From positions 45,074,001-45,138,000 of the forward strand of contig OX597830.1 of NCBI GenBank assembly GCA_951406725.2: a stretch of DNA of 64,000 nucleotides, given 5' to 3'. Source of the DNA: Octopus vulgaris. Taxonomy: Eukaryota. A program made the translations under genes and the position numbers. Below, in pieces: positions 6,201-64,000 of the stretch. Each line of letters opens with the position of its first letter. Within the stretch, counting starts at the first letter, position 1. The notes under the pieces were generated by a model. The model saw only the letters and a list, made by a program, of their open reading frames with translations, was not told the origin of the DNA and did no database searches.

Positions 6201-6507
6201 TGCCACAACTGAATGTCAAGTCGAGAACGACCAACCTGCCTTCTGGGTCAGAAAAAACCAACTTTTTCTGGGCTACCCGGTTTCCTTTTAATAGGACCAA
6301 CACCCCACCACGACCTCCAGCCCGACTCGGAGAAACGTATTTCTCGTAGCCGTTCAGGAGGGGGAGCAGATCTCTTGGCCCCTTCACCCGGGTTTCCGTT
6401 GCAACAATTATATCCAAATTTCTCGACCTGATGTCATTTAGAAAGCGTCCTTGCTTCCAGCTTGACATCAGGCCACGAACATTTATACAACCAATGTGAA
6501 TAGACAT
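3220..6507 (-). pseudogene. Tx1 ORF2: APE endonuclease + reverse transcriptase + C-terminal CCHC finger; frameshifted near the C-terminus
   Basis: 932-aa ORF 3709-6507 has INVRG, IYAPN, GDSN, YLDR, WKLN, KSPGLDG, FRPITLLN, RQGCPLSP and FADD. It continues in shifted frames (CPRC..ETVPHAIVQC at ~3470-3525; ORF 3220-3453). Confidence 0.9.
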
Positions 6508-6518
6508 GACTTACCTGT

Positions 6519-8082
6519 TTAATCAGGATTGTCCGGTGGAGGGGGACCCTCCACCTTTTTTTGATCCAGGGTCGGAGGTGGACGGTCTTGGGAAATAGAT
6601 TTGTCAAAATCCCGTCTTACCACCGACACAGAATTATCAGGTAGAGAGGGAGTGTCCACCTTTTCCTTTTCTCGCGGGATCGGGGCTGGTAATCCATGAA
6701 TTATCGACTTGTTAAAATCTAATCTCAATGAAGATACTGTCTTTCTGTATTTGTTTTGTAAAATTCTATGAGTCTTATTTGAGACTTCATATATGTCGTA
6801 ATTGATAAATTCCTCTGAAAGGTTATCTATTTTTTTACAGTCTTTATCAGTTGAATGTCTCTCATGAGCCAAGTATCTTTAGTGTATACGGCTATTATGC
6901 CTTTTTCTTCTTTTTCTCTACTGGCAGTCTTTTTTGGTCGTTGTTCTGTAGTAGTCTCCGCTCTCGGTTGAGTTGCTGGTTGTATTTTCCTTTTGTTTGT
7001 TGTTTTTTTCTCATCTGTTTCTTCTTTTTCTTCTCCCTCTTTGTCTTTTTCTCCTCTTCCTCCTCTTCCTCCTCTTCCTCATTTTCCTTGCAGTTCCTTC
7101 GAATGTGGCCTAATTGACCACATAAAAAACATCGAGGTTTTCGGCCCTCAACAAACACCACGAGGTTCTCCTCCCCTATCTCAATTGTCTCGGGAATTGC
7201 TTGAATTATTTTAGGGTCGGCTTGAATGAGGAGATTAATTGTTTGACCATCCCAGTGTGCGTTTTCGGTAGCGGTAGCCTGGAGGAGAGTAATTTTTTCT
7301 TCCTCGTTGATTAGGACTGCTGCCAACAACCACATAGGGTCCACTTCCGGTGGGACCCTTGTAATTTTTATTCTGGACGTTCTCATCCCCATATAATAGG
7401 GGATGAGCTCCCCGTCGTTCATTAACAGCGTTTCTACTGAGTTCTTGTGTGCTATTTCTTTATTGGTGAACCTTATTTCCACCGTTCCGAATTTCTTGCC
7501 TCTTCTCAGATAAACTACGTCGCCCCATATTGGCTTTAAGCACTTTTCTATTTTCTCTTCTGACATTCTTTCAATCTTCCTTTTTTGTAAACAATATGTT
7601 TTGAAAATTATTGTTTTTTGTTTTTCTTATTGTAGTAACTTTTCCGGAGGTTCAATTTTCATAACGTTGTCAGGTATTTTCATCATTTGGCTGTATTTCA
7701 TAAAGTCGCTCTTATTCGTCGACAGCAGCCGGGTTCCACCCCCAGCTGCCAGCGCAAAACTTTTCCCCCCATTTTTTGGTTCTGTCTGGATGCTAGGTGC
7801 ATCAATTATTCTTTTCAACACGATGCCTTTGTTCTCTGGCAAAGTCGGAAACTCTTCTGGTGAAAGTTCTGACGAGCTTTCGGACACATCTCCAAAAAAA
7901 TCAAATATATTATCTATTCTGCTATTCTTTCTTGTAGCGGGGGAAACCCTTATTTCCCTGTCTGTAGTTGGCTCCTCGCCGGACATGTATTTCCTCCTCT
8001 CAACAGGAGAAACAAGTATTTCTGTTCCAACGGTAGGCTCCATGCTAGACGACATTCTTCCTCCCAAAGAGGGAATGAACAA
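6519..8082 (-). pseudogene. Tx1 ORF1 (gag-like nucleic-acid-binding protein), disrupted
   Basis: CX2CX4HX4C knuckle CFLCGQLGHIRRNC. In-frame stop at 7627-7629 separates 7627-8082 from 6895-7566; a frameshift leads to 6519-6872, which ends 11 bp before the ORF2 ATG. Confidence 0.82.
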
Positions 8083-8234
8083 CGCGTGCTACTACAAGCA
8101 CTAAGTGTTTTCAAATGAAAACTCCAACAGTTAAGTTATTCAACAGTTTAACAAGAAACAACAGTTATTAGAAACAGCAGTAATTAACAATATTAACACC
8201 AAGAAACAGCAATTTTTACCACGAACACATGTGC

Positions 8235-8297
8235 GACAGACGAAATACGGCTACGCATTACGCCCGGCGTGCTAACGTTTCGGCCAGCTCGCCGCCT
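8235..8297 (-). mobile_element. SINE family A, 5' head (box A part), continuation of 2710-2881
   Basis: Minus strand aggcggcgagctggccgaaacgttagcacgccgggcgtaatgcgtagccgtatttcgtctgtc matches the head at 50270-50332. Confidence 0.88.
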
Positions 8298-10603: not shown

Positions 10604-11263
10604 ACGGTGTGTTTACGGACGGAATGCCTTTCATCATAGGTTTCCTCAACTGAAAGCAACATAGGGCTAAAATAACATCAACAGACGTATTAAAAGAGAG
10701 TGCTGAGTGGAAACAATACATAATTGTAGAGAGTCACGGTGTGTTTACGGACGGAATGCCTTTTGTCATAGGTTTCCTCAACTGAAAGCAACATAGGGCT
10801 AAAACAACATCAACAGACATATTAAAAGAGAGTGCTGAGTGGAAACAATACATAATTGTAGAGAGTCACGGTGTGTTTACGGACGGAATGCCTTTTGTCA
10901 TAGGTTTCCTCAACTGAAAGCAACATAGGGCTAAAATAACATCAACAGACGTATTAAAAGAGAGTGCTGAGTGGAAACAATACATAATTGTAGAGAGTCA
11001 CGGTGTGTTTACGGACGGAATGCCTTTTGTCATAGGTTTCCTCAACTGAAAGCAACATAGGGCTAAAACAACATCAACAGACATATTAAAAGAGAGTGCT
11101 GAGTGGAAACAATACATAATTGTAGAGAGTCACGGTGTGTTTACGGACGGAATGCCTTTTGTCATAGGTTTCCTCAACTGAAAGCAACATAGGGCTAAAA
11201 CAACATCAACAGACATATTAAAAGAGAGTGCTGAGTGGAAACTATACATAATTGTAGAAAGTC
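10604..11263. repeat. Minisatellite, 5 x 132 bp
   Basis: acggtgtgtttacggacggaatgcc starts at 10604, 10736, 10868, 11000 and 11132. Confidence 0.95.
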
Positions 11264-12315
11264 ATACTGCACTGTACACCATTCAAGTCATCATTGCATG
11301 TTGGAAATTGCTGGATCTGTTAGAGGTATCTGTAACCAATACGTCTGAGTCGGTCCGAGTCCCATAGAATCACAGAACACCACCGTGAATATCCCCACCA
11401 AAAGGGAGAAATATATGGCTTCCTTGAATTTTGCGTCGGAGTAGAGACCTTTGAAAACAATCTTGCCCGCCTAACAAAATTTCTGCAGGCCTTCCTGGGA
11501 ATGTGTAGTATAGTTGACAAAGACATAACATATCAGGAAAATGGTCCCAAGATCGTGCTTACATAGACTACTTGCTCACTATATGACAACTCGACGAGGC
11601 AGACCTGAGGCTATACAACGATAACACCGAGAACACAGAAGCCTCTATTTGGTCGTTCGAACTGCAAGAAAAAGCAGCTAAATGTTACCCATGTAACCTA
11701 GCGTCATAAAAAAGAGGGGCGCATCGCATATTATTGTACTTGATATAGAGCATACCAATAGATTGCACCGTGCAGGGCGATACTTGAGTTGGCTATCCCT
11801 CACTGAAAAATACCATATGCATCACAATTTTTTCCATCTGCCCTTATTTACGCTCGTAGATTCTATGTCTGTTTGATGAGGGGGCTGGTACTAACCAACA
11901 GTAGTTCAGTAACGCAACTGCTGCTGTTGTTGGTAGGAACAACATTACATATACACCTTCAGATTTAGCTTTCTTATACTCTAGGGATAATCTTATCTCG
12001 GTTTCTCAATTTAGCTTCAAGACGGAACAGCAGGACATGCTGTGATTCTCTATGGCTTTCATTCCTGTTGTTTAGTGCAGATTCATAATACTTCGAGCGA
12101 CCACGATGAGTACGAGTGTGTGAGTGCGTGTGTGTGTCTATGCATCAGTGTTGGAGTGTGTGTATACGTCAGTATGAGTGTGTGTGTATGTCTGTGTGAG
12201 TGTCTGTGAGTATGTGTGAATGTATTGTGTGTGAGTGCATATGGGCCTGTGTGTGTGTATATATATGATGAGTAAATGCGTGTGTGTGTCTATGTATGTG
12301 GTGTGTACATATATA

Positions 12316-13796: not shown

Positions 13797-14480
13797 TAGT
13801 TGAAATTTACAGAAAAACAAAAGACGAAGACAGGTGTATAAACAACAAGCAGGTGTATTGGTTTGAAAGTCTTTCACGTTTCGAGCCTACGCACTTCAAC
13901 AGAATGGAACAAGAGGAAAAAAGCAGAGAGAGAATAAAAAAAAACTTGTAGAGTTAGCGGTCAATCATGGCGACTTGTTGGACAAAGGTGGTTATACAGG
14001 AGAGCTAAGAAGAAGGGGAGATAATAAAGTACTGGTGATCCCCAAACAAAGGTGCGTGTGCGTGTGTGTATGTGAGAGTGTGTGTGCGTGTGGATAAGGG
14101 CTGGTGTGATGTGGTGTGCTGTGGGGGTCGGATGAAGAGGGGAGGAGAGTTGAGCACATGTGACGCAAAGGAGCGAAGAAAGAAGTTTAATTCTTGTTCA
14201 CGGCGAAGGCAAGAGTCCGGATGACCTCTGTGCAAAGACAATCCGAACACAGACAGGTGTTGTAATGAATGACCAGTAGAGCGGAAATGGCGTGAGACAG
14301 GGGTGTCATTGTCGAGTCTAATATCTCGGAGGTGCTCCTCGAACAGGTCAGCCAAACGGCGTCCCGTTTGCCCGATGTACAAAGGACAGAACGAGCAGGA
14401 GATGCAGTAAATGACATTGCTAGAAGTGCAAGTAAAGGAGTCAGTGATATAATAGGGACGATGATGGCCGAGCATTATCC
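13797..14480 (-). mobile_element. Penelope-like element 3' fragment: GIY-YIG endonuclease plus pseudo-LTR
   Basis: ORF 14005-14475 has FTCTSSNVIYCISC..LYIGQTGRRL..FEEH..PVSRHF..RREQ. The downstream repeat carries a hammerhead-like motif (13871-13904) shared with 59410-59726. Confidence 0.85.
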
Positions 14481-14744
14481 TGATGGAAGAAGACCTTTCA
14501 TCTTGAAACCGAAGATGGTTGTTTTTCTTCTAGCGCTGACTTATCTAAGCTGCTCAAGCTGCTCGCAGTAGTTCTCCTTTATTATCGTTTGGCTTGGGTT
14601 TAAATGTTCAAAGTAGACTAAAGCTTTCATATCCCATCAAACAGATAACATCTTTCGTGGGTGAAGACCTTCTTTAACCTAGGGTGCCGGTGTTTCTTCT
14701 TTCCCTACCAACTGTCTTCAGAGCTTGACATTTTTATAGAGAAT

Positions 14745-15366
14745 TCATTTCTCGTCACCAGTCACTATTGCTCATTCGTGAGATGTGACAGCAAAGAAGA
14801 GTACACATTCACTCTCTACGCGCGATTAGACTCGGACAGTTTGTGAGGAACACATCGACCCAATTTGTTGACTTTTCCGATGGCACGCAGGTGTCGCTGA
14901 ATGGTTGAATAACCAAATCCAAGCTTTTCTGCTAGTTCATCAGCAACAACGATGGGATTTTGTTCCACCAGAGTTTTCAGGATGTCCTCGTCGAGGTCTA
15001 CAGATCTTCCAGAACGCAGCTCGTCTTCTAGGCTGTAGTTTCCGGCTCGCAATTTCTGGAACTGGTTCCGCTTATTGTCCGATCTCTATATACTGCATTA
15101 ATATTCCTCGCACATTCTGTTCCGTTGTTGCCTTTACTGAACTCATAAAGCAAAATATGCTGAATATGCTCTTTGTCACTTCCATTATAGCTTTTCAAAA
15201 AGTAACTGTTAAAATCGAACTGAACTCTTCAAAACTTGCGCTAAGAACGACAAAGTACAATTACTACCTGCTTTTATAGCAAGTTGATGCAGGTAGTTTA
15301 TCCCATCCCTCTCCAACTTTTAGTTCATGCAATTGAAAAACCGCACTATTTATGGGATAACCCAAT
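14745..15366 (-). mobile_element. Mariner-type DNA transposon, 5' part
   Basis: HTH region (EDELRSGRSVDLDED...LAEKLGFGYSTIQRHLRAIGK..KLGRCVPHKL) and TIR-like ttgggttatcccataaat next to TA at ~15366. Confidence 0.8.
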
Positions 15367-15376
15367 ATATATATAA

Positions 15377-15431
<55 letters not shown>

Positions 15432-15567
15432 TATATACATATATATATACATATATATATACATATATATATATATACATATATATATATACATATATAT
15501 ATACATATATATATATACATATATATATATATACATATATACATATATATATATACATATATATACA

Positions 15568-15608
<41 letters not shown>

Positions 15609-15616
15609 ATATATAC

Positions 15617-15654
<38 letters not shown>

Positions 15655-15766
15655 GTATATATATTCATATATATATAAATATATACATATGTATATATAT
15701 ATACATATATATATACATATATATACATATGTATATATATATACATATACATACATATATATATAA

Positions 15767-15799
<33 letters not shown>

Positions 15800-15829
15800 G
15801 ATATATATACATACATATATATATATACA

Positions 15830-15867
<38 letters not shown>

Positions 15868-15985
15868 CATATATATATATACATACATATATATATATAC
15901 ATACATATATATATACATACAAACATATATATATACATACATATATATATATACATACAGATATATATATATATATACATACATA

Positions 15986-16089
<104 letters not shown>

Positions 16090-16140
16090 TATATACATAC
16101 ACACATATGTATATATACATACATACATATATATATACAT

Positions 16141-16171
<31 letters not shown>

Positions 16172-16173
<2 letters not shown>

Positions 16174-16570
16174 CTCTTTACTCTTACTTGTTTCAGTCAT
16201 TTGACTGGGGCCATGCTGGAGCACCGCCTTTAATCGAGCAACTCGACCCCGGGACTTATTCTTTTTGTAAGCCCAGTATTTATTCTATCGGTCTCTTTTG
16301 CCGAACCGCTAAGTAACGGGGACATAAACACACCAGCATCGGTTGTCAAGCGATGTTGGGGGACACAGACACACAAACACTTACATATATATATACATAT
16401 ATACATATATACGACGGGCTTCTTTTCAGTTTCCGTCTACCAAATCCACTCACAAGGCTTTGGTCGGCCCGGGGCTATAGCAGAAGACACTTGCCCAAGA
16501 TGCCACGCAGTGGGATTGAACCCGGAACCATGTGGTTGGTTAGCAAGCTACTTTCCACACAGCCACTCCT
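16172..16570 (-). mobile_element. tRNA-derived SINE family B (copy 1 of 3)
   Basis: Head gcaggagtggctgtgtgg...gggttcaatccc; tail ggcggtgctccagcatggcc...tgaaacaagtaagagtaa. Confidence 0.85.
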
Positions 16571-16578
16571 GCATACAT

Positions 16579-16619
<41 letters not shown>

Positions 16620-16638
16620 CATACACACACACACACAC

Positions 16639-16675
<37 letters not shown>

Positions 16676-16879
16676 TATATACATATATATATACATATAT
16701 ATATACATATATATATATACATATATACATATATATATATACATATATACATATATATATATATACATATATACATATATATATATACATATATATACAT
16801 ATACATATATATATATATATATATATACATTTATATATATACATATACATATATATATATATATACACATGTATATATA

Positions 16880-16922
<43 letters not shown>

Positions 16923-17098
16923 TCATATATATATATATACATATGTATATATATATATACATATATATATACATATATATACATATATATATATATATAC
17001 ATATATATATACATATACATACATATATATATAAACATACATATATATATATATATACATAGATATATATACATACATATATATATATACATATATAT

Positions 17099-17131
<33 letters not shown>

Positions 17132-17152
17132 ATACATATATATAAACATACA

Positions 17153-17242
<90 letters not shown>

Positions 17243-17329
17243 CATATATATATACATACACACATATGTATATATACATACATACATATATATATATACA
17301 TACACACACACACACACACATATATATAT

Positions 17330-17728
17330 ACTCTTTACTCTTACTTGTTTCAGTCATTTGACTGGTGCCATGCTGGAGCACCGCCTTTAATCGAGCAACT
17401 CGATTCCGGGACTTATTCTTTTTGTAAGCCCAGTATTTATTCTATCGGTCTCTTTTGCCGAACCGCTAAGTAACGGGGACATAAACACACCAGCATCGGT
17501 TGTCAAGCGATGTTGGGGGACACAGACACACAAACACATACATATATATATACATATATACATATATACGACGGGCTTCTTTTCAGTTTCCGTCTACCAA
17601 ATCCACTCACAAGGCTTTGGTCGGCCCGGGGCTATAGCAGAAGACACTTGCCCAAGATGCCACGCAGTGGGATTGAACCCGGAACCATGTGGTTGGTTAG
17701 CAAGCTACTTTCCACACAGCCACTCCTG
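17330..17728 (-). mobile_element. SINE family B (copy 2 of 3)
   Basis: Near-identical to 16172-16570. Confidence 0.85.
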
Positions 17729-17735
17729 CATACAT

Positions 17736-17772
<37 letters not shown>

Positions 17773-17775
17773 CAT

Positions 17776-17816
<41 letters not shown>

Positions 17817-17925
17817 CATATATACATATATATATACATATATATATACATATATACATATATATATACATATATACATATATATATATATACATATATA
17901 CATATATATATATACATATATATAC

Positions 17926-17965
<40 letters not shown>

Positions 17966-17973
17966 ATATATAC

Positions 17974-18015
<42 letters not shown>

Positions 18016-18215
18016 GTATATATATTCATATATATATATATATATATATATACACATGTATATATATTCATATATATATATACATATGTATATATATATA
18101 TACATATATATATATACATATATATACATATGTATATATATATACATATATATATACATATACATACATATATATATAAACATACATATATATATATATA
18201 TACATAGATATATAT

Positions 18216-18619
18216 TCCATCAGCATTGCCCAAATGATGTTGGCATCACCTTTAAGGTACATCCAAGGCTTGGGCCCCGTGCCATCCGCCCAAAACAAAA
18301 ATCGCACTCTCATCTCATAACAACAATACGGCACAATTATTTCACCTCAATTGGCCCCGCTCTCTTTAACATTACACCAAAACACATTAAAACAGAAACT
18401 GACCCTATAGGGTTCAAGAAGTCTTTGGACAGATTCCTTCAAGAAATCCCGGATAAACCCCCTACACCCGGATATGTCTCTGTAAACAATAACTCTCTAC
18501 TTGAGTGGGCCATAGTGCCCAAATTCTGACTTGAAAGACTTCACCAGGTGGTGCTATTAAGTTAGACATGGCCTGGGCCAATAATGGCCGAAACCTATCA
18601 AAGTATCAAAGTATCAAAG
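18216..18619 (+). mobile_element. CR1-group LINE 3' fragment with (AAGTATCA)n tail
   Basis: ...[13 protein letters not shown]...[19 protein letters not shown]; inserted in (TA)n. Related copy on the minus strand at ~44945-45160. Confidence 0.8.
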
Positions 18620-18647
18620 TATATATACATACATATATATATATACA

Positions 18648-18685
<38 letters not shown>

Positions 18686-18767
18686 CATATATATATATAC
18701 ATACATATATATATATACATACATATATATAAACATACAAACATATATATATATATATATACACATG

Positions 18768-18821
<54 letters not shown>

Positions 18822-18880
18822 CATATATATATACATACACACATATGTATATATACATACATACATATATATATATACAT

Positions 18881-18911
<31 letters not shown>

Positions 18912-19310
18912 CTCTTTACTCTTACTTGTTTCAGTCATTTGACTGGGGCCATGCTGGAGCACCGCCTTTAATCGAGCAACTCGACCCCGGGACTTATTCT
19001 TTTTGTAAGCCCAGTATTTATTCTATCGGTCTCTTTTGCCGAACCGCTAAGTAACGGGGACATAAACACACCAGCATCGGCTGTCAAGCGATGTTGGGGG
19101 ACACAGACACACAAACACATACATATATATATACATATATACATATATACGACGGGCTTCTTTTCAGTTTCCGTCTACCAAATCCACTCACAAGGCTTTG
19201 GTCGGCCCGGGGCTATAGCAGAAGACACTTGCCCAAGATGCCACGCAGTGGGATTGAACCCGGAACCATGTGGTTGGTTAGCAAGCTACTTTCCACACAG
19301 CCACTCCTGC
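18912..19310 (-). mobile_element. SINE family B (copy 3 of 3)
   Basis: Near-identical to 16172-16570. Confidence 0.85.
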
Positions 19311-19312
19311 AT

Positions 19313-19455
<143 letters not shown>

Positions 19456-23949: not shown

Positions 23950-24244
23950 GAGTCGAAAGGAAGAATTTCGCTGTAGGAAATCAAATGAACAAAATGCTGT
24001 TTAAACTGAATGAGGAAAATGTTGTGTAAAAAAATTACTGGTATTCATATATATGTGTTGGTATAAAACTGAGCAAAAACTTTAAAAAAGTAGAATAAAT
24101 CCATGGTAAAAATCCGTGAAAGCTGTATAAAGATAGAATTCCTATGATCCATTTCTGTAATCCCTATGTTTCAGCTTGTGCACCGTTACTAGTGCATGAC
24201 ATTAAGGTGACATACAGTAACCACGTTATAAAACATATATATGC

Positions 24245-25590
24245 ATGTAAAATCGGAGGCAGCGATGATTGATTACATCAATATAAAGGAAGACGATGTA
24301 ATAAAGGCTATTGATGAAATGAAAACAAACTCAGCTACTGGCCCAGATGAATTCCCAGCAATCCTTCTAAAAGTATGTAAGAGAGTCCTAGCAAGACCAC
24401 TGCAGTTCCTCTTTCAGAGCTTCCTTGCAACTGGCAAACTTCCAAGAAAACTGAAGGATAGAAGTCAGGTGGTAGTAGCCAATGGGGCCACTTCCATTAA
24501 CACGCAAATAGTGAGCGGTGTTCCGCAAGGCACTGTTCTGGGACCACTACTGTTCATAATGGCCCTCTCAGACATGCCCTCAGCCACACAGAGAGCCACG
24601 ATCACAAGTTATGCAGATGATACAAAAGTTTCACAGGCAATACAGAACCCTGGAGACATTAAGCACCTGCAATGGGAGCTGGACAAAATATACAAGTGGG
24701 CTGAAAAGAATAGCACGCAGTTCAATGCTGAAAAATTTCAAGCTTTATACTATCAGCATGCAAAACTAAATGCAACACCCAATAAATACACTGGACCTGG
24801 AGGGACTGCAATCCCAGAGGCACAATCAGTGCGAGACCTGGGTATTTACATGAGTGATGATGTAACCTTTCATGTGCATGTTGCTAAATTGGCAATGAAA
24901 TGTAGGCGGCTGACCGGATGGATTCTTAGAACATTTAGAACAAGAGACCAGGAAACCATGAAGGTCCTCTGGAGGACACTTGTCCTAAGCCACTTTGACT
25001 ATTCCTCTCAGCTATGGTCACCATCCAGTGTCAAGTTAATCACAGAACTTGAGGCGATCAAACGAAGTTACACGAAGAAGATAGCCTCTGTGCAGCATAT
25101 AAGCTATTGGGAAAGACTCAAGAGATTGAGACTCTATTCCTTAGAGCGTAGGCGAGAAAGATATGCCATAATACACATCTGGAAGATCCTAGAAGGACTT
25201 GTCCCAAACTTTGGCATCGAGAGTTACACAAATGCCAGAACTGGGCGCCACTGCATAGTGCCAAGGACTCCAAATTTGCCATCAAGATATAGGACAAGAT
25301 ACTGTGATAGCCTGGGCTTCAGAGGCCCACAGCTCTTCAGTATCCCCCCGAAGAACCTGAGAGACATGCATGGGGTAGACGCAGATGTCTTTAAAATGAA
25401 ACTGGATCTCTTCTTGTCAGGTATCCCAGATGAACCAACTTTACGGCAGGAGGTGCAGATGAGGGCAGCTGCATCGAACTCTCATGCACCAAATGGCAAT
25501 TGCTAAAAAGCACTCGTGAAGTAAAATCATGTAGCAACACCAAATGGCGGTGCCCCAGCATGGCCACAGCTTGTGAGCTGAAACTAGATA
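24245..25590 (+). mobile_element. CR1-group LINE, 5'-truncated and internally deleted RT
   Basis: [40 protein letters not shown]; 3' stem-loop ggcggtgccccagcatggccacagc. Confidence 0.9.
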
Positions 25591-27036: not shown

Positions 27037-27191
27037 TGTGGAATAGTTTGGTACGTGTACTTCTGCGTCCTCTATATCAGAGCTGAGGTGAGTTTCCACG
27101 AGTGCTATGCATAGGGCTTCATTACATGCAGTAAGATCTCTCAGAAAAGAAATTTTGTTTTTATTTTGATGGAACAGGCCTCAAATTAATT

Positions 27192-27262
27192 TACAGCGAC
27201 CGGGAATCGACCCCAGGCCGACCGCGTTGTAGGCAAGCATTCTACCACTGAACCATCGATGT
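27192..27262 (-). pseudogene. tRNA-Gly-derived pseudogene
   Basis: 71 nt, acatcgatggttcagtggtagaatgcttgcctacaacgcggtcggcctggggtcgattcccggtcgctgta, colinear with eukaryotic tRNA-Gly(GCC). Anticodon loop and T-loop are mutated. Confidence 0.8.
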
Positions 27263-27499
27263 ACGCTTGTATATATTATACATATATATGTATAATATAT
27301 GTATATATATATATACACACACACATATATATATATACTAGCATTATGACCCGTCGTTGCCAGTTCATAGTGCTAGTGCAAGTATATATGTACATATTAC
27401 ATGTACATCTATATATATACATCTACACATAAAATACAAAATACAAAGTTATATCTTGATATCACTAGTGATAACAATACTCAAAATATATAACAGACT

Positions 27500-28691: not shown

Positions 28692-29715
28692 ATGCCCTCA
28701 AATGCCCGGATAGCCACTCTGGCCAGCTACGCAGACGATACGAAAGTCTCGCAGAAAATACAGAACCCCAGCGATGTTGCACACCTGCAGCAGGAGTTGG
28801 ACTCAATCTACAGATGAGCTGAGGATAATAATATGCAGTTTAATGCTGAAAAATTCCAAGCCCTGCGCTACCAGCATCCAAAACTGAATATTAAGCTTAC
28901 AGGATACACCGGTCCATAGGGAATTTCAATCCCAGAGCCTAAGTCAGTGAGGGACCTGGGTATCGAACATGAGTGATGATACCTCTTTCCAAGTGCACAT
29001 TGCCAGGATGGCGACAAAGTGCAGACGACTGGCTGGGTGGATCCTAAGAACATTCAGAACCAGAGATAAGGAAACCATGATGGTCCTCTGGCGGACATTC
29101 GTCCTCAGCCGCCTGGATTACTGCTCACAGCTATGGTCACCCACCAGTGTGAAATTAACAGCGGACCTTGAAGCAATCCAGAGAAGATTCACAAAGAAGA
29201 TCGTCTCTTTGCAACAGCTCAGCTACTGGGAATGTTTGAAACAGCTAAGACTCTACTCCCTGGAGAAAAGACGGGAGAGGTATGCAGTAATATATGTCTG
29301 GAAGATCCTGGAAGAAATTGTGCCAAATTTTGGCATTGTAAGCTACACTAATGCTAGAACGGGACGCCACTGTATAGTGCCAAAGATCCCAGCAATGCCA
29401 TCACGCTTCAGGACCAGCTTCTGCAACAGCCTGCGTAACAAGGGCCCACAGCTTTTTAATATTCTCCCAAAGAGTCTGAGGAACTATCACAAAGTAGATA
29501 TAGCGGTTTTTAAATCAAAGCTGGACGTCTTCCTATCGAGAGTCCCATATGAACCTATCTCACGGCAAGAGGTGCAAATGAGAGTAGCTATATCAAACTC
29601 CATTCTTTACCAAGTGCCACATATTAGACGAGGTTCTTCGCAATAACAGTGTAGCACAAAACGGCGGTGCATCAGCATGGTCGCAGCTCTGAGCTGATAC
29701 CAGAGATAAAAGAAA
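28692..29715 (+). mobile_element. CR1-group LINE 3' fragment (another subfamily)
   Basis: SYADDTK at ~28725; ORF 28969-29646; 3' stem-loop motif at ~29663-29700. Confidence 0.88.
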
Positions 29716-33836: not shown

Positions 33837-34745
33837 TATATTGGATTCGGCAAAAGCCACATAATTAAAGTATGAAAGTGGACAAGTGTCTTCCACTATA
33901 GCCTCGGGCCGACCAAAACCTTGTGAGTGGATTTGGTAGACGGAAACTGAAAGAAGCCCGTCGTATATATACATATATACTTTTTTCTCAGGAACTATTA
34001 GACCTGACACCATGTAGTAACCGGTGTTGTTCAAACGATGAATAGCTTAGCGTAAACCATGGTCCGTTTTGTTCTCTTACTTTATTATCATCTTATAATC
34101 ATCTCATAATAATGACTTTTATGACTCGTATTACTACCTCAGTCAATCTAAATGTATATATTTGTCTTTACCTGTCATAAATAGCCTTTTTTTTATTTGC
34201 AATGTGCATTTTCGTTTATTTTTCATACTTTACCCCTATATCTCTTATTATAAAAGGCAGATTTTATCTGCCTCCCTTTGGGAGTTATACAAATCTACAA
34301 TATAGCATTTCTTCAATTACAATTTACCTTGCATTTTTAAGAGTACAATGCATCGCGTCATGCCAGCTCCAGTTTTTAAAATTTAAACTCCAGTTAAGCA
34401 AAATTTACAGAAAACTCACATTCTGGTGTGTGTGTCAAATGCTTTTCTTAGTCTGGTTTACACCACACGCAAACGCACACACACAGTGGGCAACGAATAA
34501 AACGAAACTAATTGACTTACTGTAGTGAGTGATTCTTTCACTCTGCCTCCCACTTCTTCTTTCCACACAGACACGCAAATATATAAATAAAATTGTAAGC
34601 TAACGTGCGTGTGTGTGAGTGGGTGTGTGTGGGTGTGCGCGTGTGTGTGTATGTTTGAGGGTGCGTGTGTGTGTGCGTGTGCGTGAGTGTGTGACAGGAA
34701 AGTTTTTTTACGACGAATATAACACCTATATCCAAGTAGCAGAAA

Positions 34746-35442
34746 GATAAGACAGTAAGGTGTGATTTGAGGGAGATTTGGCTGCTATTTCTACCATGTC
34801 TAGCTGCCATGTAGGGGTCTCCCTCATAGGCTCATACATACATATATACATAGATAAGACAGTAAGGTGTGATTTGGGGGAAATTTGGCTGCTATTTCTA
34901 CCAGGTCTAGCTGCCATGTAGGGGTCTCCCTCATAGGCTCATACATACATATATACATAGATAAGACAGTAAGGTGTGATTTGGGGGAAATTTGGCTGCT
35001 ATTTCTACAAGGTCTAGCTGCCATGTAGGGGTCTCCCTCATAGGCTCATACATACATATATACATAGATAAGACAGTAAGGTGTGATTTGGGGGAAATTT
35101 GGCTGCTATTTCTACCAGGTCTAGCTGCCATGTAGGGGTCTCCCTCATAGGCTCATACATACATATATACATAGATAAGACAGTAAGGTGTGATTTGGGG
35201 GAAATTTGGCTGCTATTTCTACCAGGTCTAGCTGCCATGTAGGGGTCTCCCTCATAGGCTCATACATACATATATACATAGATAAGACAGTAAGGTGTGA
35301 TTTGGGGGAAATTTGGCTGCTATTTCTACCAGGTCTAGCTACCATGTAGAGGTCCCCCTCATTGGCTCATATATATATATATACATACATAAGACAGTAA
35401 GGTGTGATTTGAGGGAGATTTGGCTGCTGTTTCTACCAGGTC
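34746..35442. repeat. Minisatellite, ~6.5 x 107 bp
   Basis: gataagacagtaaggtgtgatt recurs with period 107; identical ORFs at 34824, 34931, 35038 and 35145. Confidence 0.95.
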
Positions 35443-35808
35443 TGTTAGGCCTTCTCATGTAAACTCAAGCTTTCTCATGCCTTCAACATATGACCAAAGC
35501 AGAGAATGTATTCTTTTATTCTTCTGCTTTTTCCAGCCATTGGTCTGTGGCCATGCTGGGGCAATGCCTTGAAGAATTGTAGTTTAATGAATCAACTCCA
35601 GTTTTATTTTTGTAAGCATTGTACTTATTCTATCTGTTTCCTTTGTCAAACCACTAGGTGACAGGGATGTAAACAAACCAACATTCGTTGTCAAGCAGTG
35701 GTGGAGGACAATCACAAGCACAGACACGCACACACACACACATACATGCATACACATATACACACATACATACATACATACATATATATATATGTGTGTA
35801 TATATATA

Positions 35809-44659: not shown

Positions 44660-44839
44660 TGTTTTATTTGTTCCAGTCATTTGACTGTGGCTATGCTGGA
44701 GCACCGCCTTGAACGGTTTTAGGCGAAAACATTGACCCCAGGACTTTTTTTAAAGCCTAATACTTATTCATTCGGTCTGTTTTGCCTAACTGCTACGCTA
44801 GGGGACGTAAACACCAGTTGTGAAGCGGTGGCAACGGGG

Positions 44840-44889
<50 letters not shown>

Positions 44890-45320
44890 ACACATACACA
44901 CACATACATATATACGTGTGTGTGTGTGTGTGTATACATACATAAGAATAACTTATAATAACTTAGAAAGGTTTTGGCCAGTATTGGCCCAGGCCATGTC
45001 TAACTTAATAGCACCACCTGGCGAAGTCTTTCAATTCAGGATTTGGGCACCAAGGCCCATTCGAGCAGAGAGTTATTGTTTGCAGAGACATATCCGGGTG
45101 TGGGTGGTTTGTCCGGGACTGTTTGAAGGAATTTGTCCAAAGACTTCTTGAATTTTGTGTGTGGACTTCTTTCAGTTTCCGTTTATCAAATCCACTCACA
45201 AGGCTTTAATCGACCCGAAGCTATAGTAGAAGACACCTGCCCAAGGTGTCACGAAGTGCGAATGAACTCGGGAGCATATGGGTTGGGAAGCAAGCTTCTT
45301 AAGATAGAAACACGCCTGCG
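44660..45320 (-). mobile_element. SINE family B copy interrupted by a CR1-group LINE 3' end (~44945-45160)
   Basis: SINE tail 44660-44840 and head 45160-45320; the insert is homologous to 18410-18600. Confidence 0.7.
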
Positions 45321-45560: not shown

Positions 45561-45968
45561 CTCTTTACTCTTTTACTCTTTTACTTGTTTCAGTCATTTG
45601 ACTGCGGCCATGCTAGAGCACCGCCTTTAGTCGATCAAATCGACCCCGGGACTTATTCTCTGTAAGCCCAGTACTTATTCTATCGGTCTCTTTTGCCGAA
45701 CCGCTAAGTGACGGGGACGTAAACACACCAGCATCGGTTGTCAAGCAATGCTAGGGGGACAAACACAGACACACACATATATATATAAATATATATACAT
45801 ATATACGACAGGCTGCTTTCAGTTCCCGTCTACCAAATTCACTCACAAGACATTGGTCGGCCCGGGGCTATAGCAGAAGACACTTGCCCAAGATGCCACG
45901 CAGTGGGACTGAACCCGCAACCATGTGGTTGGTTAGCAAGCTACTTACCACACAGTCACTCCTGCGCC
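45561..45968 (-). mobile_element. SINE family B, full length
   Basis: Complete head to (GAGTAAAA)n tail. Confidence 0.88.
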
Positions 45969-45994
45969 TATTATTTTTCTTTTAATTGAACATT

Positions 45995-46390
45995 CTTTTC
46001 TACTCTAGGCACAACGCCTGGAATTTTGGGGGAGGGGGCCAGTCGATTAGGTCGACCCCAGTACGCAACTGGTACTTAATTCATCAACCCCGAAAGGATA
46101 AAAGGTAAAGTCGACCTCAGCGGAATTTGAACTCAGAATGTAAAGATAGACGAAATACCTATTTCTTTACTACCCACAAGGGGCTAAACACAGAGAGGAC
46201 AAACAAGGACAGACAAACGGATCAAGTCCATTAGATCGACCCCAGTGCGCAACTGGTACTTAATTTATTGACCCCGAAAGGACAAAAGGCAAAGTCGACC
46301 TCGGCGGAATTTGAACTCGGAACGTAACAGCAGACGAAATACTGCTTAGCATTTCGCCCGGCGTGCAAACATTTCTGCCAGCTCGCCGCC
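45995..46390 (-). mobile_element. Dimeric SINE family A (head-core-tail1-core-tail2)
   Basis: Two cores, junction at ~46149-46170. TSD ttcttttaattgaacatt (45977-45994) / ttcttttaatttgaacatt (46391-46409). Confidence 0.88.
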
Positions 46391-46529
46391 TTCTTTTAAT
46401 TTGAACATTGTTAAATGCATATATGTACGTATGTCTGTTTGCCTGTCTGTATGTCATATGATTTCTTGTCAATATAACATCTTTTCGATTTGCATCCGTC
46501 ATCTCATGGCATACACCCTCGCACATACT

Positions 46530-49697: not shown

Positions 49698-50268
49698 ATG
49701 TATGTATGTAGGTATGTATGTATGTATGTATGTATGTATACACGCATGCATATACACACGTAAGCGTCGGTGTTTGTCTTGAAATAAAAATTGTTTATCA
49801 AAAAAAGTTTTGTTATATTTGTCTGGAAGATCCAGTTACAACATGGACAAATGCAAAAGCAGATAATCCGGGGTCTGAGGTGCCGTTAGGCTAAAAACAA
49901 GGATTGATCAAGAAAGGAGCCGTAGGGAATACTCGAAGTTGAAATGGATTATTTGAGCAGAAGTGTTAGAGTAAGGCACTGATTGAAACGTTACCCATTC
50001 ACGTTAGACTCGATTTTCTTTGTCCTTCGGCTTTTCTTTAATCTGTCTATGTCTTTCTTTTTCTCTCTCTTTCATTCACACACACACTTTCTCTCTCTCT
50101 TGCCCCCCCCCCCCCACACAGTATTTATTTGGAATGCTGCTTTTATTAAAAACTCCACATTTAAAAGTCATATTTGTGAAAAGTCAGTATGCTGTTTCAA
50201 ATACCAAGCAAGTAGAAAATAACTTATTCTTTGTTTTACATTTGGATTTCTTTATATTTTTAAATCAT

Positions 50269-50499
50269 AAGGCGGTGATCTGGCAGAAACGTTAGCATGC
50301 CGGGCGAAATGCGTAGCCGTATTTCGTCTGTCGTTACGTTCTGAGTTAAATTCTGCCGAGGTCGACTTTGCCTTTCATCCTTTCGGGGTCGATAAATTAA
50401 TACCAGTTGTGCACTGGAGTCGATGTAATCGACTTAATCCCTTTGTCTGTCCTTGTTTGTTCCCTCTGTGTTTAGCCCCTTGTGGGTAGTAAAGAAATA
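50269..50499 (+). mobile_element. SINE family A, intact monomer with the Tx1-like tail
   Basis: Perfect 16-bp TSD tatatttttaaatcat at 50253-50268 and 50500-50515. Confidence 0.92.
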
Positions 50500-50619
50500 T
50501 ATATTTTTAAATCATTCAAGATTTATGCTTTCTAGACTGGACTCTTAATTTTTATGATGTATGAATATATTTCAAATATAAAAGTCAACAGTCCAATTTG
50601 TAGAGTATGGTACCTGAAT

Positions 50620-51811: not shown

Positions 51812-52027
51812 ATTCGTTTCTATTCTAGGAACAAGGCCCGAAATTTTGGGGCAAGGGGCCAGTCGATTAGATCGATCTCAGTACGCAACTGGTATTTGAT
51901 TTATCGACCCCGAAAGGATGAAAGGCAAAGTCGACCTCGGCGGAATTTGAACTCGGAACGTAACAGCAGACGAAATACTGGTAAGCATTTCGCCCGGCGC
52001 GCTAACGATTCTGCCAGCTCGTCGCCT
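51812..52027 (-). mobile_element. SINE family A monomer with the alternative tail
   Basis: Same head and core as 50269-50499; tail ...aaaatttcgggccttgttcctagaatagaaac. Confidence 0.88.
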
Positions 52028-53846: not shown

Positions 53847-54605
53847 TTACATAAATTCATTACCACTACATTGTGCGAAAGTGCATTTATATGCATGTAT
53901 GCATCTTGCGAGTCTTCCAGAAATTCTATTAACGATCTTCTCATTGGTTCGCAGAATAGACAGGGATTCCTCGGAGCCGAGTCGGCATCTCCTTGAAACG
54001 ATATTATATGGTTTTACTTGCCTTACTATGGACCAAGTTATGTTATACTTAATTTTCTCTTCCTTAAGTTGCCACACAAAATCGGCCAAAGATGCTGAAT
54101 GTCTCTTGATGATTTTCTTAAAGCTGGCAACATGGTTGCGATAACGATTCTTGAATGAATCAGCCGTTCTCCCAATGTAAACATACGGTGCCCGCCTAGT
54201 GTGTATAGTACATTTATATACAAGATTTGTACTCATACAGAGGTTCATCAACGGGCATCTTGATTTTTCACTGAATAAGCATTTGTTATATTTAGTTGCA
54301 TATGTGGCAGTTCTGACTTCATTTCCCGACGTTGTTGCCGTATTAGCTATTTCACTATTATTGCTACTATCACGATATGGCCGTATCTGGTGCTTTTCAT
54401 TGTGGTTTACATCTCCTTTCTTGGTATTTTGATGTATATGTTCACTAGTTCTTGTAGATGGGGTATTGAACTGTTGTTTCATTTTACTATCATTAATGCG
54501 GTGCATCTGCTGCTCTAAGTTAATAGAGTTAGCGTAAGATACCTTCACAGTGTGTCTATTAAAAATAGCATGGCATCTATTTGATTTGGAGAAACGTTTG
54601 TCCAA
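53847..54605 (-). pseudogene. Penelope ORF C-terminus with GIY-YIG endonuclease
   Basis: IFNRHTVKVSY..CPL..NLVYKCT..YIGRTADSFKNRYRNH..SF..WQLK..WSI..CRL. Confidence 0.85.
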
Positions 54606-54691
54606 AGTGGCAAAAGATTCCTTAGCGATCTTCGTTGAAACATATGAACCGAGGATTGGGTTGCGGAACTGTTATGTTAACGAGTTATTTC

Positions 54692-55599: not shown

Positions 55600-56690
55600 C
55601 TCTTCGTTATAATTATTCCAATGTATACTTATTCTAAGTGCTGAATTTTCTTCCTTTTCATTCGCCCGACTATACTGTACTTTCTACTGCCAGAAAGTGC
55701 CAAACACATTTTTCTATTTTTAGTATTTCTAGGATTTTGTGTAAAATTGTAGGTACGATAAGTACAAATGAGAATTTATTGTCAGAGCTGTAAGTTCCAC
55801 ATTAATTCACTATAAATGTATACTTTTTTTCTTGAACTTTGATTTTACATTCCCATCCGCTGGTCAGTTAACTTCCACCACAGTGCATAACCTTTGTTTC
55901 CTGTCCAACAGAGACCAATATCAGGTCGAATATATTTGCACCGAATTGCTGTTTTTACTAGAATGTTTTACCAGTGTTCCTTCTTTTAAAAGGTGTGAAT
56001 ACATGTTGGTTCTGACATGCTTCTGACATATACGTCATGGCAATTTTTCTAAATAGTCTATTGCAAATAGTCTTTGCAAATATATCATGCCTCAGGGGCA
56101 GGTACTATCTTGTAGACATTTTGGGGAAGCAGCTAATGATGGAGTTGATATCTTCTACACTGGTATAGCAGAGCCACTACGTTCTAAGTTCAAATTCCGC
56201 CGAGGTCGACTTTGCCTTTCATTCTTTCGGGGTCGATTAAATAAGTACCAGTTACGCACTGGGGTCGATGTAATCGACTTGATCCGTTTGTCTGTCCTTG
56301 TTTATTACCTCTGTATTTAGCCCCTTGTGGGTAGTAAAGAAATAGGTATAGCAGAGCCGACATTTTCTACCATAACGTGGAAGTTTGATGGTATCCTTGT
56401 CCCTCTTGTTGATCAGGTTAGGGCTATCTACTGTTCTTGGATAGCGAAGGCATATACTTCTTGGTGGGATGTCATGTATCTACCACAGGTTTAGGAAATA
56501 CTACTCTTTCTGTCAAAGCTGTTGTTATCCTCTAGCTTACGGGATATGTACCCATGCATAATACCAACAAACTCGAAGACAGCACCAACAAAACCGTTTC
56601 CTTCACGGACATCAATGTCAAAGCATCTTCTCCAATTACTCCGACCAGCAACGCGGTTAGCCATTACAACTTTATTTTTTCAAGTAATCC
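55600..56690 (-). mobile_element. Highly degenerate RLE-type retrotransposon fragment
   Basis: RPD...LCTVVEVN-like segment at ~55850-55930 resembles 48836-49138. Confidence 0.5.
56176..56344 (+). mobile_element. 5'-truncated SINE family A (Tx1-like tail)
   Basis: Perfect 14-bp TSD ggtatagcagagcc at 56162-56175 and 56345-56358. Confidence 0.9.
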
Positions 56691-58891
56691 ATGGACACGT
56701 GAAAATCAGAGTAACAGTTATTTTGTGATATTTTTGCAGCTTTGATAAAAAGCATATTATTCTAACTCCGGTATTCGCATACAATTTTTTTACCACCTTG
56801 TGTTGCATTTATGTGCTTACTTATGTGTGTGTGTGTGTGCGCGCGCGCGTGTCGATCACGAAACAAGTATTTGCTTAAACTCACAATGAACGCGTTTTAC
56901 CATCATAATGCCGGCTATAATGCTAATGATGAATCAAAACAATGTTTAGCGGCCAATAAGTTGAACTGGAGCCAGTAGACTAAATGTTTCATAATGCATC
57001 GGTTTGTCCTTTGTTTTTCTCGGTTCCTAAACCTACCACCTTCCACTTCAATGTTATTTACTGTTCATTGCAGCTTAAAGATGTAATAAAAGCGAGTCGA
57101 TGAATTATTCATATTTCGTTAAGGATTGATGCCACGGTTAATCACTGGATAAAATGATTTAAATTACATTTATGATTTGTCCTTTTTGAAAGTTTGAGTT
57201 AGAAATAAATAAATTAGTGATAGAAATGAAAAGTAAATAGTAAGTGGAAACTTAAATTAATAATCTAGAAATCAGAAACTATTTTTGAGGTGTATTCCTC
57301 CTTCATCCTGATGTATTGAATCACCGAAATCCATCGGTTCTGTTGATTCACCGACCACTTTCGCATAAGAAGCCGACCATAGATTCCACGTGATCGTCTG
57401 GAAATAGTAACAAGATCTCCAACAAACATCACACTACCGTCTTTTAAAAAAAAACTATGTTTAAGTTAACATTATTTTGTCTTCGAAAAAAAAAAAAAGA
57501 CGTATTCCACCATGGAGTGGTGCAATAGTTGTTATTTTAGTATTCAACATTTTTACGAACGCGAGCCAACAAAAGAGCCTCTATCTATTTTCTCAAACTT
57601 CTAGCAGTTAAATCTCTCTCGCTCTTATTTTACACCTCATTATTGTAAAATGGTAATTCAATTTTAGACGTTCAAACATATTAAAACGTACAAGATTTGA
57701 TGGTCATGGTGGGAATGCTTTTGACCATCAAGTCTTGCTGGGAATGCTTTTGACCATCAAGTCTTGCTACATTAGGGCTGATATTGAGGGATAAACAATA
57801 ATAGAAGTTTGAGAACAACTTCCTTCTTCTCTCCCGTCATTGATAGGAGGACTCTTCCTCCTCTAAGTGATTAAAAAATGTCACAGGTGCAGTGAAACCT
57901 ATTTTTCTTTTTGTTCAACTATTTTGTGTATCAGGTATTCCTTATAAGATTACATCAGTTCGGAAGATTTACAGAATCATGAGAGTGTCCGACTAAATGC
58001 CTTACACAATTTATTCGGGATCAGCATTCTGAGTTCAAATGACGCTGGGTCAACTTTGTCGTTCATCCTTCTGGGTTAATAAAGTAAAGTGGTCACCATT
58101 ACAAGAAGTTTTGATCTTGTACCTAAGTTAGAAACAAATACTAATTTAGTTCTTTCCATTAATTTCTTTACATAATTTCTTTCCCTCTCAAACTTCTACC
58201 CCCTCACACTACTTGCGTTCATTTTCTTTAATTTTCTTTCTTCGATTCTTCTCAACGTTTTCAGTTTCTTTTTCTGTTCTTACTTCCTCCACTCTTCTTA
58301 TCTCCTTAATCTTTTTCTCCCTTTCCACTTTTCACGTCTGTCAGTATCTCTTGTCGCCATTACCTTTTCACTTACTTGCCACTCACTCAACTTGTCTAAC
58401 ATTTCAACTCAATTGAAGATCAAATAATATGTTCATTCAATATCAGATCTCTTCTGAAAGAACTGAAGTCGCTAAATAAGCCAAACTATTATTAACCCAG
58501 AGAACCACCGCCATTGCATGTCCAGTAGTAATAACAGAAGAATCTAGATTTCTACTGAAATATTTCAGACTGTGGTTTCTCGAAGTAGCAATGGTAAAGT
58601 GTCTATTTAAGAAATGGAAGCGTTTCTGGTAATGAACAGTCACATTTCTAATTCTTCATTGTAGTGTAATGTGTGAGTGTGTGCGTGTGTGAGAGAAAGA
58701 GAGAGAGAGAATACATAATACAAACATACATACATATAAATATACATACATACATGTATATACACTCTATACATACACGCACACACACATATGTACACAT
58801 ACACAGAGTGCAATGGGTAAATTGTCGCCATTTCATATTTTTTGATATTGCGCATGCACATTGTTTTAAATTTTGTCGACTACACAGTATA

Positions 58892-61409: not shown

Positions 61410-62083
61410 TTTTTATTTTATCTAGTTTCAGCTCGCGAGCTGTGGCCATGCTGGGGCACCGCCATTTGGTGTTGCTACATGATTTTACTTCACGAATGCT
61501 TTTTAGCAACTGCCATTTGGTGCATGAGAGGGTTCGATGCAGCTGCCCTCATCTGCACCTCCTGCCGTGAAGTTGGTTTATCTGGGACACCTGACAGGAA
61601 GAGATCCAGTCCTACTTTAAAGACATCTACATCCACCCCATGCAGGTCCCTCAGGTTCTTCGGGAGGATATTGAAGAACTGTGGGCCTCTGAAGCCCAGG
61701 CTATCACAGTATCTTGTCGTACATCTTGATGGCAAATTTGGAGTCCTTGGCACCACGCAGTGGCCCCCAGTTCTGGCATTTGTGTAACTCTCGATGCCAA
61801 AGTTTGGGACAAGTCCTTCTAGGATCTTCCAGATGTATATTATGGCATATCTTTCTCGCCTACGCTCTAAGGAATAGAGTCTTAATCTCTTGAGTCTTTC
61901 CCAGTAGCTTATATGCTGCACAGAGGCTATCTTCTTCGTGTAGCATCGTTGGATCGCCTCAAGTTCTGTGATCAACTTGACACTGGATGGTAACCATAGC
62001 TGAGAGCAATAGTCAAAGTGGCTTAGGACAAGTGTCTTCCAGAGGACCATCATGGTTTCCTGGTCTCTTGTTCTAAAGGTTCT
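61410..62083 (-). mobile_element. CR1-group LINE 3' fragment (same subfamily as 24245-25590)
   Basis: RTFRTRDQETM...LERRRERY...GPQFFNILP plus the 3' stem-loop. Confidence 0.9.
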
Positions 62084-62147
62084 ATGTATATATATGTATA
62101 TGTATATATATGCATATGTATATATGTGTATATGCATACATATGTAT

Positions 62148-63195
62148 AAATCCTTAAATCCTTTAAAATGTTTTAGCCCGAAGGCCACGGCCATGCTGGG
62201 GCACCACCGTTGAATGAGCTACACTAATATGTGAATCCACCTCTGATACGTGGCACTTGATCAACAAGGGAGTTTGATGCCGCTGTCCGCATCTGTGTCT
62301 CCTGTCGTGAGGTAGGTTCATCTGGGACCCCCGACAAGAAGAGATCCAGTTTAGTTTTAAAGAAACCCACATCCACACCATGCAAGTCTCTCAGGCATTT
62401 AGGGAGGATGTTAAAGAGCTGTGGTCCTCTGAAACCCAAACTGTTGCCGTATCTGGTCCTGTATTTTGATGGTGATGTTGGAATCTTTGGCACAATGCAG
62501 TGGCGCCCCGTTCTGCCGTTGGGGTAACTTTGAATGCCAAAGTTTGGGACGAGACCTTCCAAGATTTTCCAGATGTATATCACCGCATATCTCTCCCGCC
62601 TTCGCTCTAGGGAGAAGAGGTTTAATACTTTCAGTCTTTCCCAGTAGCTGATATGTTGCATTGAGAGGATCTTCTTTGTGTAGCTTCTTTGAATTGCTTC
62701 GAGTTCTGCTGTTAGTTTTATATTGTGTGGTGACCATAGTTGGGAGCAGTTGTCCAAGCAGCTGAGGACGAAAGTTTTCCACAGGACCATCAGTTTCTCT
62801 TTCTCTCTTGTTCTGAAAGTTCGGAGAATCCATCCAGCTAGCCGTCTGCTTTTTATCACCAGATTAGTAATATGCACTTGGAAAGATGCATCATTGCTCA
62901 TGTCAATGCCCAGGTCACGCACTGATTTTGACTCAGGGATTGCAATTCTTCCTGGGTCAGTGTATCCAGTCTGCATGTCGTTTACCTTTGTGTGCCGGTA
63001 GCCCAGGGCCTGGAACTTACCTGCGTTAAACTGCATGTTGTTGTCCTCAGCCCACCTGTATATTGTATCCAGCCCCTGTTGCAGATGTGCAAAATTTCCA
63101 GGGTTTTGTATTGTGTGGGAGACATTTGTGCCATTTGCATAGCTAGCAAGGGTGGCCATTTTAGCAACTGAGGGCATATCTGAAAGGGTCACTAT
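62148..63195 (-). mobile_element. CR1-group LINE 3' fragment (third subfamily, (TTTAAGGA)n tail)
   Basis: Decayed SYADDT (SYANGT)...NMQFNAGK...LERRRERY...GVPDEP. Confidence 0.9.
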
Positions 63196-63236
63196 GAATA
63201 TGTATATATATGTATATATATATGTATATATATATG

Positions 63237-63320
<84 letters not shown>

Positions 63321-63389
63321 GTATGAATATATATATATATAAATATATATATGTATACATATGTATATATATATGTATACATATATACG

Positions 63390-63440
<51 letters not shown>

Positions 63441-64000
63441 GTTTGATTATATCTATATATGTGTGTCCCTGTGTCTGGAAACAACCCATTAACTGCCTTA
63501 TATCTGAAAGCAGTATTTCACATTTTAGCCTCACATAACCTTTTGACTGATTTCCAGAATGTATGTTTTATGTTTTTTATGATACGAAGATTATTATTGG
63601 AGAAAAGCCAGGATGTAAATTGCATGGAAGAAGTGCTAGATAATATTAAAGTGCAAGAAACCTATATATATATTATTGATTGAAGAATAATGCAAGAGAA
63701 AGCTGCATTCACGATATAATAGAAGTTTTTTAAAACTTCTTTTCTTTTTTGATGTAAATATATCGAAATATGCTTTTGATTGCATTCCTCTGCTGTTAAC
63801 CGTTTATTTACCCACATTAACCGATTATGTAATAAATATTTATGCCATCTGGATTGACCAGGTTGTCTGTAAAGAGCCGGCTCCACTGGCCACAACATTC
63901 GTTCCATTCCTTTCGTGCTCACGCCATTCTTCTCCACGTTATTCCAAACATTTTTTTTAATCATCTTCCCACCTGATTGGAGCTTTTCCGAGTAGTTTCT

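Follow-up and report, generated by a model that had tools for sequence, protein, structure and literature searches.

How did two copies of one SINE come to be joined at the same base that a LINE has used to enter another copy of that SINE? Within the 64-kb stretch of Octopus vulgaris DNA analysed here (the window), a SINE dimer lies on the minus strand at 46390-45995. The original prediction held that a SINE copy mobilised by Tx1 machinery had integrated there into another SINE, at the LINE's preferred site. Our analysis indicates that the dimer junction was probably made by the LINE's machinery at a site that it prefers.

Anatomy of the dimer

The proposed layout of the dimer is borne out: reading along the minus strand from 46390 to 45995, a head and core are followed by a first tail (tail A), a second core without a head, and a different tail (tail B). 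The head (SINE positions 1-47; 46344-46390) carries an A-box-like motif near 46380-46369. The left core (positions 48-166; 46225-46343) has a B-box-like motif at 46318-46306, holds an unoccupied copy of the insertion site, finishes in a 19-nt hairpin-like end, and is nearest to a tail-B monomer at 52026. Tail A (46160-46224) is similar to the LINE 3' end and meets the right core at 46160|46159. This right core (46041-46159) starts from SINE position 48 and lacks the head and the A-box, with the B-box-like motif retained. Tail B (45995-46040) is unlike the LINE end and is also found on the monomer at 52026-51815. Both box labels were given by eye against the Pol III box consensus and are putative.

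Both arms lie within a single outer TSD, for which ~18 bp had been claimed. Its 5' copy has 19 nt (46391-46409, minus strand) and its 3' copy 18 nt (45977-45994, minus strand); the two are one indel apart with no substitutions, and none of 500 shuffles scored as well.

No tRNA in the dimer head was matched by ARAGORN or Rfam, and an Rfam search of 45700-46500 returned nothing meaningful. The head RNA is predicted to form a long hairpin in each of three heads (46296-46390, 50271-50364, and 51932-52026; z -1.5 to -3.2), with the insertion-site motif forming the 3' arm of this hairpin and the junction at or adjoining the loop end. In the tails, no fold reaches significance (z 0.5 to -1.0).

A decayed LINE in another copy of the SINE

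The LINE spans 5.35 kb of the minus strand (2882-8234) and, although decayed, is readable as an L1/Tx1-type element with a zinc knuckle, an endonuclease, and a reverse transcriptase (RT). ORF1 (8088-6895) is interrupted by one stop and has a zf-CCHC match of 3.3e-5, which is better than the curated cut-off. A CCHC zinc knuckle in ORF1 is a Tx1-type trait. ORF2 encodes an AP-type endonuclease followed by an RT at 6510-3709 (Pfam Exo_endo_phos, 6.5e-8; RVT_1, 1.1e-28), after which frameshifts and stops continue to about 3200. Its top relative among solved structures is L1 ORF2p, with an E value of 3.8e-62 versus 1.6e-17 for R2. Neither a named Tx1 reference nor a sequence from the host species occurs among the 28 + 9 homologues of the LINE. 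The name Tx1 is used by anatomy rather than by phylogeny; judged by its sequence, the element fits the L1/Tx1 group. There is no further copy of this LINE in the 64-kb window.

The LINE sits in another copy of the dimer's SINE, one with tail A, and is flanked by a perfect 15-bp TSD (8249-8235 and 2881-2867) that begins at SINE position 48. The head of the host SINE (8235-8296, minus strand) ends in the 5' TSD copy, and the remainder (2710-2881, minus strand) opens with the 3' copy.

One SINE family with two tails

Six elements of the family were identified in the window by BLAST and nhmmer: the LINE host, the dimer, copies at 50271, 56178, and 52026, and an old copy near 57971. The first of the free-standing copies is a full tail-A monomer (50271-50499, plus strand) with a 16-bp TSD (50253-50268 and 50500-50515), whose target is outside any SINE. 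Another tail-A monomer is 5' truncated (56178-56344, plus strand) and has a 14-bp TSD (56162-56175 and 56345-56358); the first five bases of this TSD are those at the dimer junction. Tail B is carried by a full monomer (51815-52026, minus strand) with a weak TSD, identical at 11 of 16 positions and equalled by 11 of 500 shuffles. The old, diverged member (57971-58125, plus strand) has a tail-B-like end and a site without an insertion. Only one dimer is found in the 64-kb window.

The two tails differ in their relation to the LINE. Each of the four tail-A copies resembles the LINE end, over its last 50-65 nt, more closely than do all 500 shuffles; for the dimer's tail A the score is 48 against a shuffle maximum of 30 (0/500 as good). 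Neither of the two tail-B copies rises above its shuffles, 500/500 and 165/500 of which are as good. These similarities would fit a tail A borrowed from an L1/Tx1-type LINE, by which the SINE may in turn be mobilised. Compared with the two long tail-A copies, the dimer's tail A is identical at 61/65 and 60/65 nt, while it shares only 44 identities, with gaps, with the end of this LINE. The LINE at 2882 is thus rejected as the direct source of this tail, and the junction comes from a SINE RNA, in an event separate from the insertion of the LINE.

The 19-nt hairpin-like motif is present in the dimer at 46225-46243 and 46041-46059 and also in monomers, and tails A and B begin right after it. A second SINE family has the same motif (45629-45647, 16232-16250, 18970-18988, and 44721-44739, all on the minus strand) in front of a third tail type of its own. 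In total, 10 matches are found where 0.01 would be expected, and the motif may be a common boundary for tail exchange.

As a whole, the window resembles an animal genome with many SINEs and microsatellites. A composite SINE with a microsatellite in its middle (45570-45968, minus strand) begins eight bases beyond the dimer's TSD; its parts are putatively CORE-like and then Deu/Nin-like. Further copies of it lie near 16371, 17528, 19109, and 43557; another copy, at 45166-45320, is old. From about 15300 to 19400, three similar tandem units each combine a composite SINE with a long (AT)-rich microsatellite, which reflects either a recent duplication or an assembly artefact. Young tandem arrays are seen at 10604-11264 (132 bp x 5, 98%) and 34745-35443 (107 bp x 6.5, 97%). 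Three 3' fragments of another LINE family (24232-25506, 28951-29646, and 61490-63567) are presumably CR1/L2-like, and two fragments at 14005-14529 and 53847-54671 presumably encode a Penelope-like endonuclease. ARAGORN reports a tRNA-Cys with an unusual ACA anticodon at 27191-27263 on the minus strand, adjoining a (TA)n run; it is probably a SINE head or a pseudogene.

A shared junction column and a probable preferred site

The claim that the dimer and the LINE use the same position holds: the junction of the dimer's tail A and the insertion of the LINE both fall on SINE position 48, which has the A-box-like motif on one side and the B-box-like motif on the other. The 10-mer at this site, GTATTTCGTC, has six exact matches in the window, all within this SINE family, and two one-mismatch matches outside it. 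As the 10-mer is simply part of the SINE, its presence is not evidence of targeting; what is informative is the shared junction column. For a random column, two 3' junctions coinciding in one of about 230 has a chance of ~0.4%, a figure to be read with the case having been picked after the fact.

Five 3' junctions in the window are formed by tail A or the LINE end. Two are at SINE position 48, namely, the one LINE junction (1/1) and one of the four made by tail-A SINEs, and the remaining three are outside SINEs. Over the first 8 nt of the site, these three outside targets agree at 6, 5, and 4 positions, where the background averages 2.3, and the summed match has a P value of 5.8e-4 (5.3e-4 without simple repeats). 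The sample is small, and the 8-nt reference was itself derived from the two focal sites. Each of the two tail-B targets agrees at 3 positions. Site specificity as predicted is therefore upheld in part: a sequence preference stands (P about 6e-4), while strict targeting of SINEs does not, as three of four tail-A junctions are outside them. Our reading, from the sequences of these few targets, is that the machinery shared by tail A and the LINE would have a real sequence preference that the SINE itself meets best, rather than an exclusive target.

The two cores and the 5' junction

The left and right cores of the dimer differ at 16/118 sites (13.6%); unlinked copies of the family differ at 7 to 17 of 99 to 118 sites. 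This divergence, together with the different tails, rejects a recent tandem or assembly duplication. Unequal crossover between monomers was likewise rejected, as the end of tail A is not homologous to position 48. The left core differs least from the tail-B copy at 52026 (9/118 sites) and most from the right core (16/118). In the tree, it groups with the tail-B monomer and not with the tail-A monomers (support 90/90, below the threshold of the tool), so that the left arm would be either from an unsampled subfamily or a recombinant. Conflicting diagnostic columns likewise point to unsampled subfamilies or to exchange, as far as sequence comparison goes.

The original prediction also had the insertion closing by a seamless homologous 5' junction. 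The sequence itself does not show this closure, which was deduced from the missing second head: there is no inner 15-bp TSD and no visible seam. The would-be inner TSD of 15 bp differs at 4/15 positions, with an exact match of 11 nt only, and its left version is that of the independent copy at 52026, with which the left arm shares its states over positions 43 to 157. At positions 61-62, the left arm does not have the bases typical of the right arm, which means that the host's TSD copy was not kept.

Private changes number 7/118 in the right core versus 3/118 in the left (position 48 left out), a difference that is not significant (Fisher P 0.33). A C-to-T change that creates a T4 run is common to the two arms only; the run is in none of the four monomers checked. 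If inherited, the shared change could terminate Pol III transcription; it also argues slightly for duplication or conversion. As a single shared change among 92 non-CpG sites, it can also be a coincidence, with a chance estimated at about 1 in 8.

How the dimer may have formed

In the mechanism that we propose, the LINE's machinery would prefer sites like SINE position 48, as suggested by two exact and three partial sites, and a tail-A SINE RNA would have been reverse transcribed from a nick at position 48 in a tail-B copy, giving the junction. The product would have one head and a complete promoter; as the monomers are without T4, it may have been transcribable and copyable as a dimer by way of tail B. 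The locus analysed here would then be either the original event, in which the 5' end was closed by annealing to the identical head upstream or a second head was lost later, or a retrotransposed copy of a dimer. Of the predicted movement of a SINE by Tx1 machinery into a SINE, what is upheld is the tail shared with the LINE end and a separate event at the same base; integration in place was not established.

Three routes would lead to the same structure equally well: annealing in place, collapse of a duplicated head, and copying from elsewhere of a dimer made by read-through. In its strict form, the in-place route has the insertion happening at this locus, the cDNA annealing to the identical upstream head, and the outer TSD belonging to the older tail-B host. 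A 15-nt staggered cut would leave an upstream strand homologous to the cDNA and in register, and with R2 templates that had homology upstream, most junctions were of the annealed type (PMC11331408). The greater number of private changes in the right core has the direction expected for an older host, but this excess is not significant and would also be expected if an old host copy had given rise to a dimer master. A simple model further predicts an inner 15-bp TSD, which the differences at 4/15 positions do not supply, although an annealed junction need not leave one; the loss of the host's TSD copy at positions 61-62 and a left arm that resembles 52026 without a seam also speak against it. We regard formation strictly in place as possible, at somewhat less than an even chance.

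Alternatively, the junction would have arisen at another locus, on one or a few occasions; Pol III transcription would have continued through tail A into the remainder of the host, and the partner LINE of tail B would have copied the whole unit to this locus. One TSD around both arms and a unit running from SINE position 1 to the end of tail B are as this account would have them, and the first three TSD bases are the same as those of the tail-B monomer. The absence of T4 from the monomers makes read-through plausible, and the missing inner TSD needs no extra step. The T4 in both arms counts against it, if the master had that run, as does the finding of just one dimer among six family elements in the window, and an in-place event would leave an identical outer TSD. 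A dimer subfamily comes close to an even chance in our estimate. The single locus does not choose between formation in place and a dimer subfamily, which are about evenly balanced. They are also compatible, as the product of annealing could itself serve as a dimer master.

It is improbable that a local core duplication or a template-switch chimera produced the dimer and that the match to the LINE's site is due to chance. The tail-B-like left core and the one derived base found in both arms only would suit this origin, and SINE tail exchange is usually ascribed to template switching (PMC4824008). Yet the two cores are not sisters at 13.6% divergence, a duplication would not place tail A between the copies, and a template switch does not explain why the right arm begins at position 48.

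The preferred reading, in which the LINE's machinery made the junction, admits a bolder extension that we put forward tentatively and consider rather unlikely: a self-targeting loop in which the SINE carries the site of its partner LINE between its promoter boxes, the family being both passenger and landing pad. In such a loop, insertions at the same site would recur and close seamlessly by annealing, giving promoter-complete dimers that leave by either tail, a sequel for which we claim no higher probability. RNA extending past tail A would carry the target sequence, which could guide priming.

Further dimers were sought by proxy. A junction-spanning, stop-free antisense reading of 41 residues found no protein among 1.84 billion representatives, a weak proxy that needs spurious gene calls; the same reading gave no candidate in a 90% protein set, an equally weak proxy covering longer proteins only. 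A 22-nt core pattern had one match among bacterial and archaeal genomes, in a haloarchaeon; its flanks are unrelated, and it was rejected as chance.

Comparison with published systems

The closest precedent is crocodilian. In Kojima 2015 (PMC4494074), Tx1-Mar LINEs and SINEU share a target inside another transposon, with a preference of 13% to 90% by family, and tandem SINEU-3 copies that sandwich a TSD are interpreted as successive insertions rather than as a subfamily. The octopus locus is similar in that a Tx1-type LINE and a SINE share a transposon target and that SINEs are inserted in tandem, and this precedent covers most of the logic of the dimer finding; the dimer represents no new class of element. 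The crocodilian system differs in having a Mariner DNA transposon as target, heads derived from snRNA, and, in the same text, no shared 3' tail found. In the octopus, the target is in the SINE itself, the tail resembles the LINE end, and the unit in second place is a host that lacks a head and ends in a different tail.

The same source sets the criterion for a target-specific Tx1 family at >20% of flanks in one repeat. It describes a target-preferring clade that includes Xenopus Tx1 in Tx1D, Keno in U2, Kibi and Koshi in microsatellites, and Tx1-9_AMi in Harbinger (PMC4494074). Like these, the octopus element is a LINE with an endonuclease and an RT that is flanked by a short TSD and occupies a defined base in a multicopy sequence. 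In contrast to it, they have no tRNA-type SINE named as a target in that text, and the octopus LINE is assigned by anatomy. For R2, "anneal" 5' junctions are described in Palm et al. 2024 (PMC11331408), in which the 3' end of the cDNA pairs with a homologous upstream target and no duplication results; there, the endonuclease is of another type and the templates are engineered, while the junction type in the octopus is deduced only.

MetaSINEs have a tRNA-like head, a central domain, and exchangeable LINE-derived tails (Nishihara et al. 2016, PMC4824008). They are defined by a 66-bp Meta domain with 61-86% identity. The octopus family likewise has a head, a central domain, and exchangeable tails, and its core may resemble the Meta domain. 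Short motifs from the window were not found in the searchable supplements of PMC4824008 and PMC4758252, so far as available, and neither "Tx1" nor "dimer" occurs in the accessible text of the former. Neither a Tx1-type LINE that targets its own tRNA-type SINE nor this dimer was found in the literature searched, with Repbase and most subscription papers lying outside that search.

Significance

Relative to the literature searched, what is new is that a putative tRNA-type SINE serves as the target; shared LINE and SINE targets and tandem insertions are already published (PMC4494074). In genome annotation, dimers of this kind would be split or miscounted as families. If the finding is true genome-wide, a tRNA-type SINE joins the known Tx1 targets. 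Junctions at so abundant a target would far outnumber those at rDNA or snRNA targets, making a natural rate of homologous 5' annealing measurable. The finding would also give a testable account of the origin of dimeric SINEs and of tail exchange and, if the self-targeting loop is true, a way in which dimeric SINEs and switches of LINE partner would arise repeatedly.
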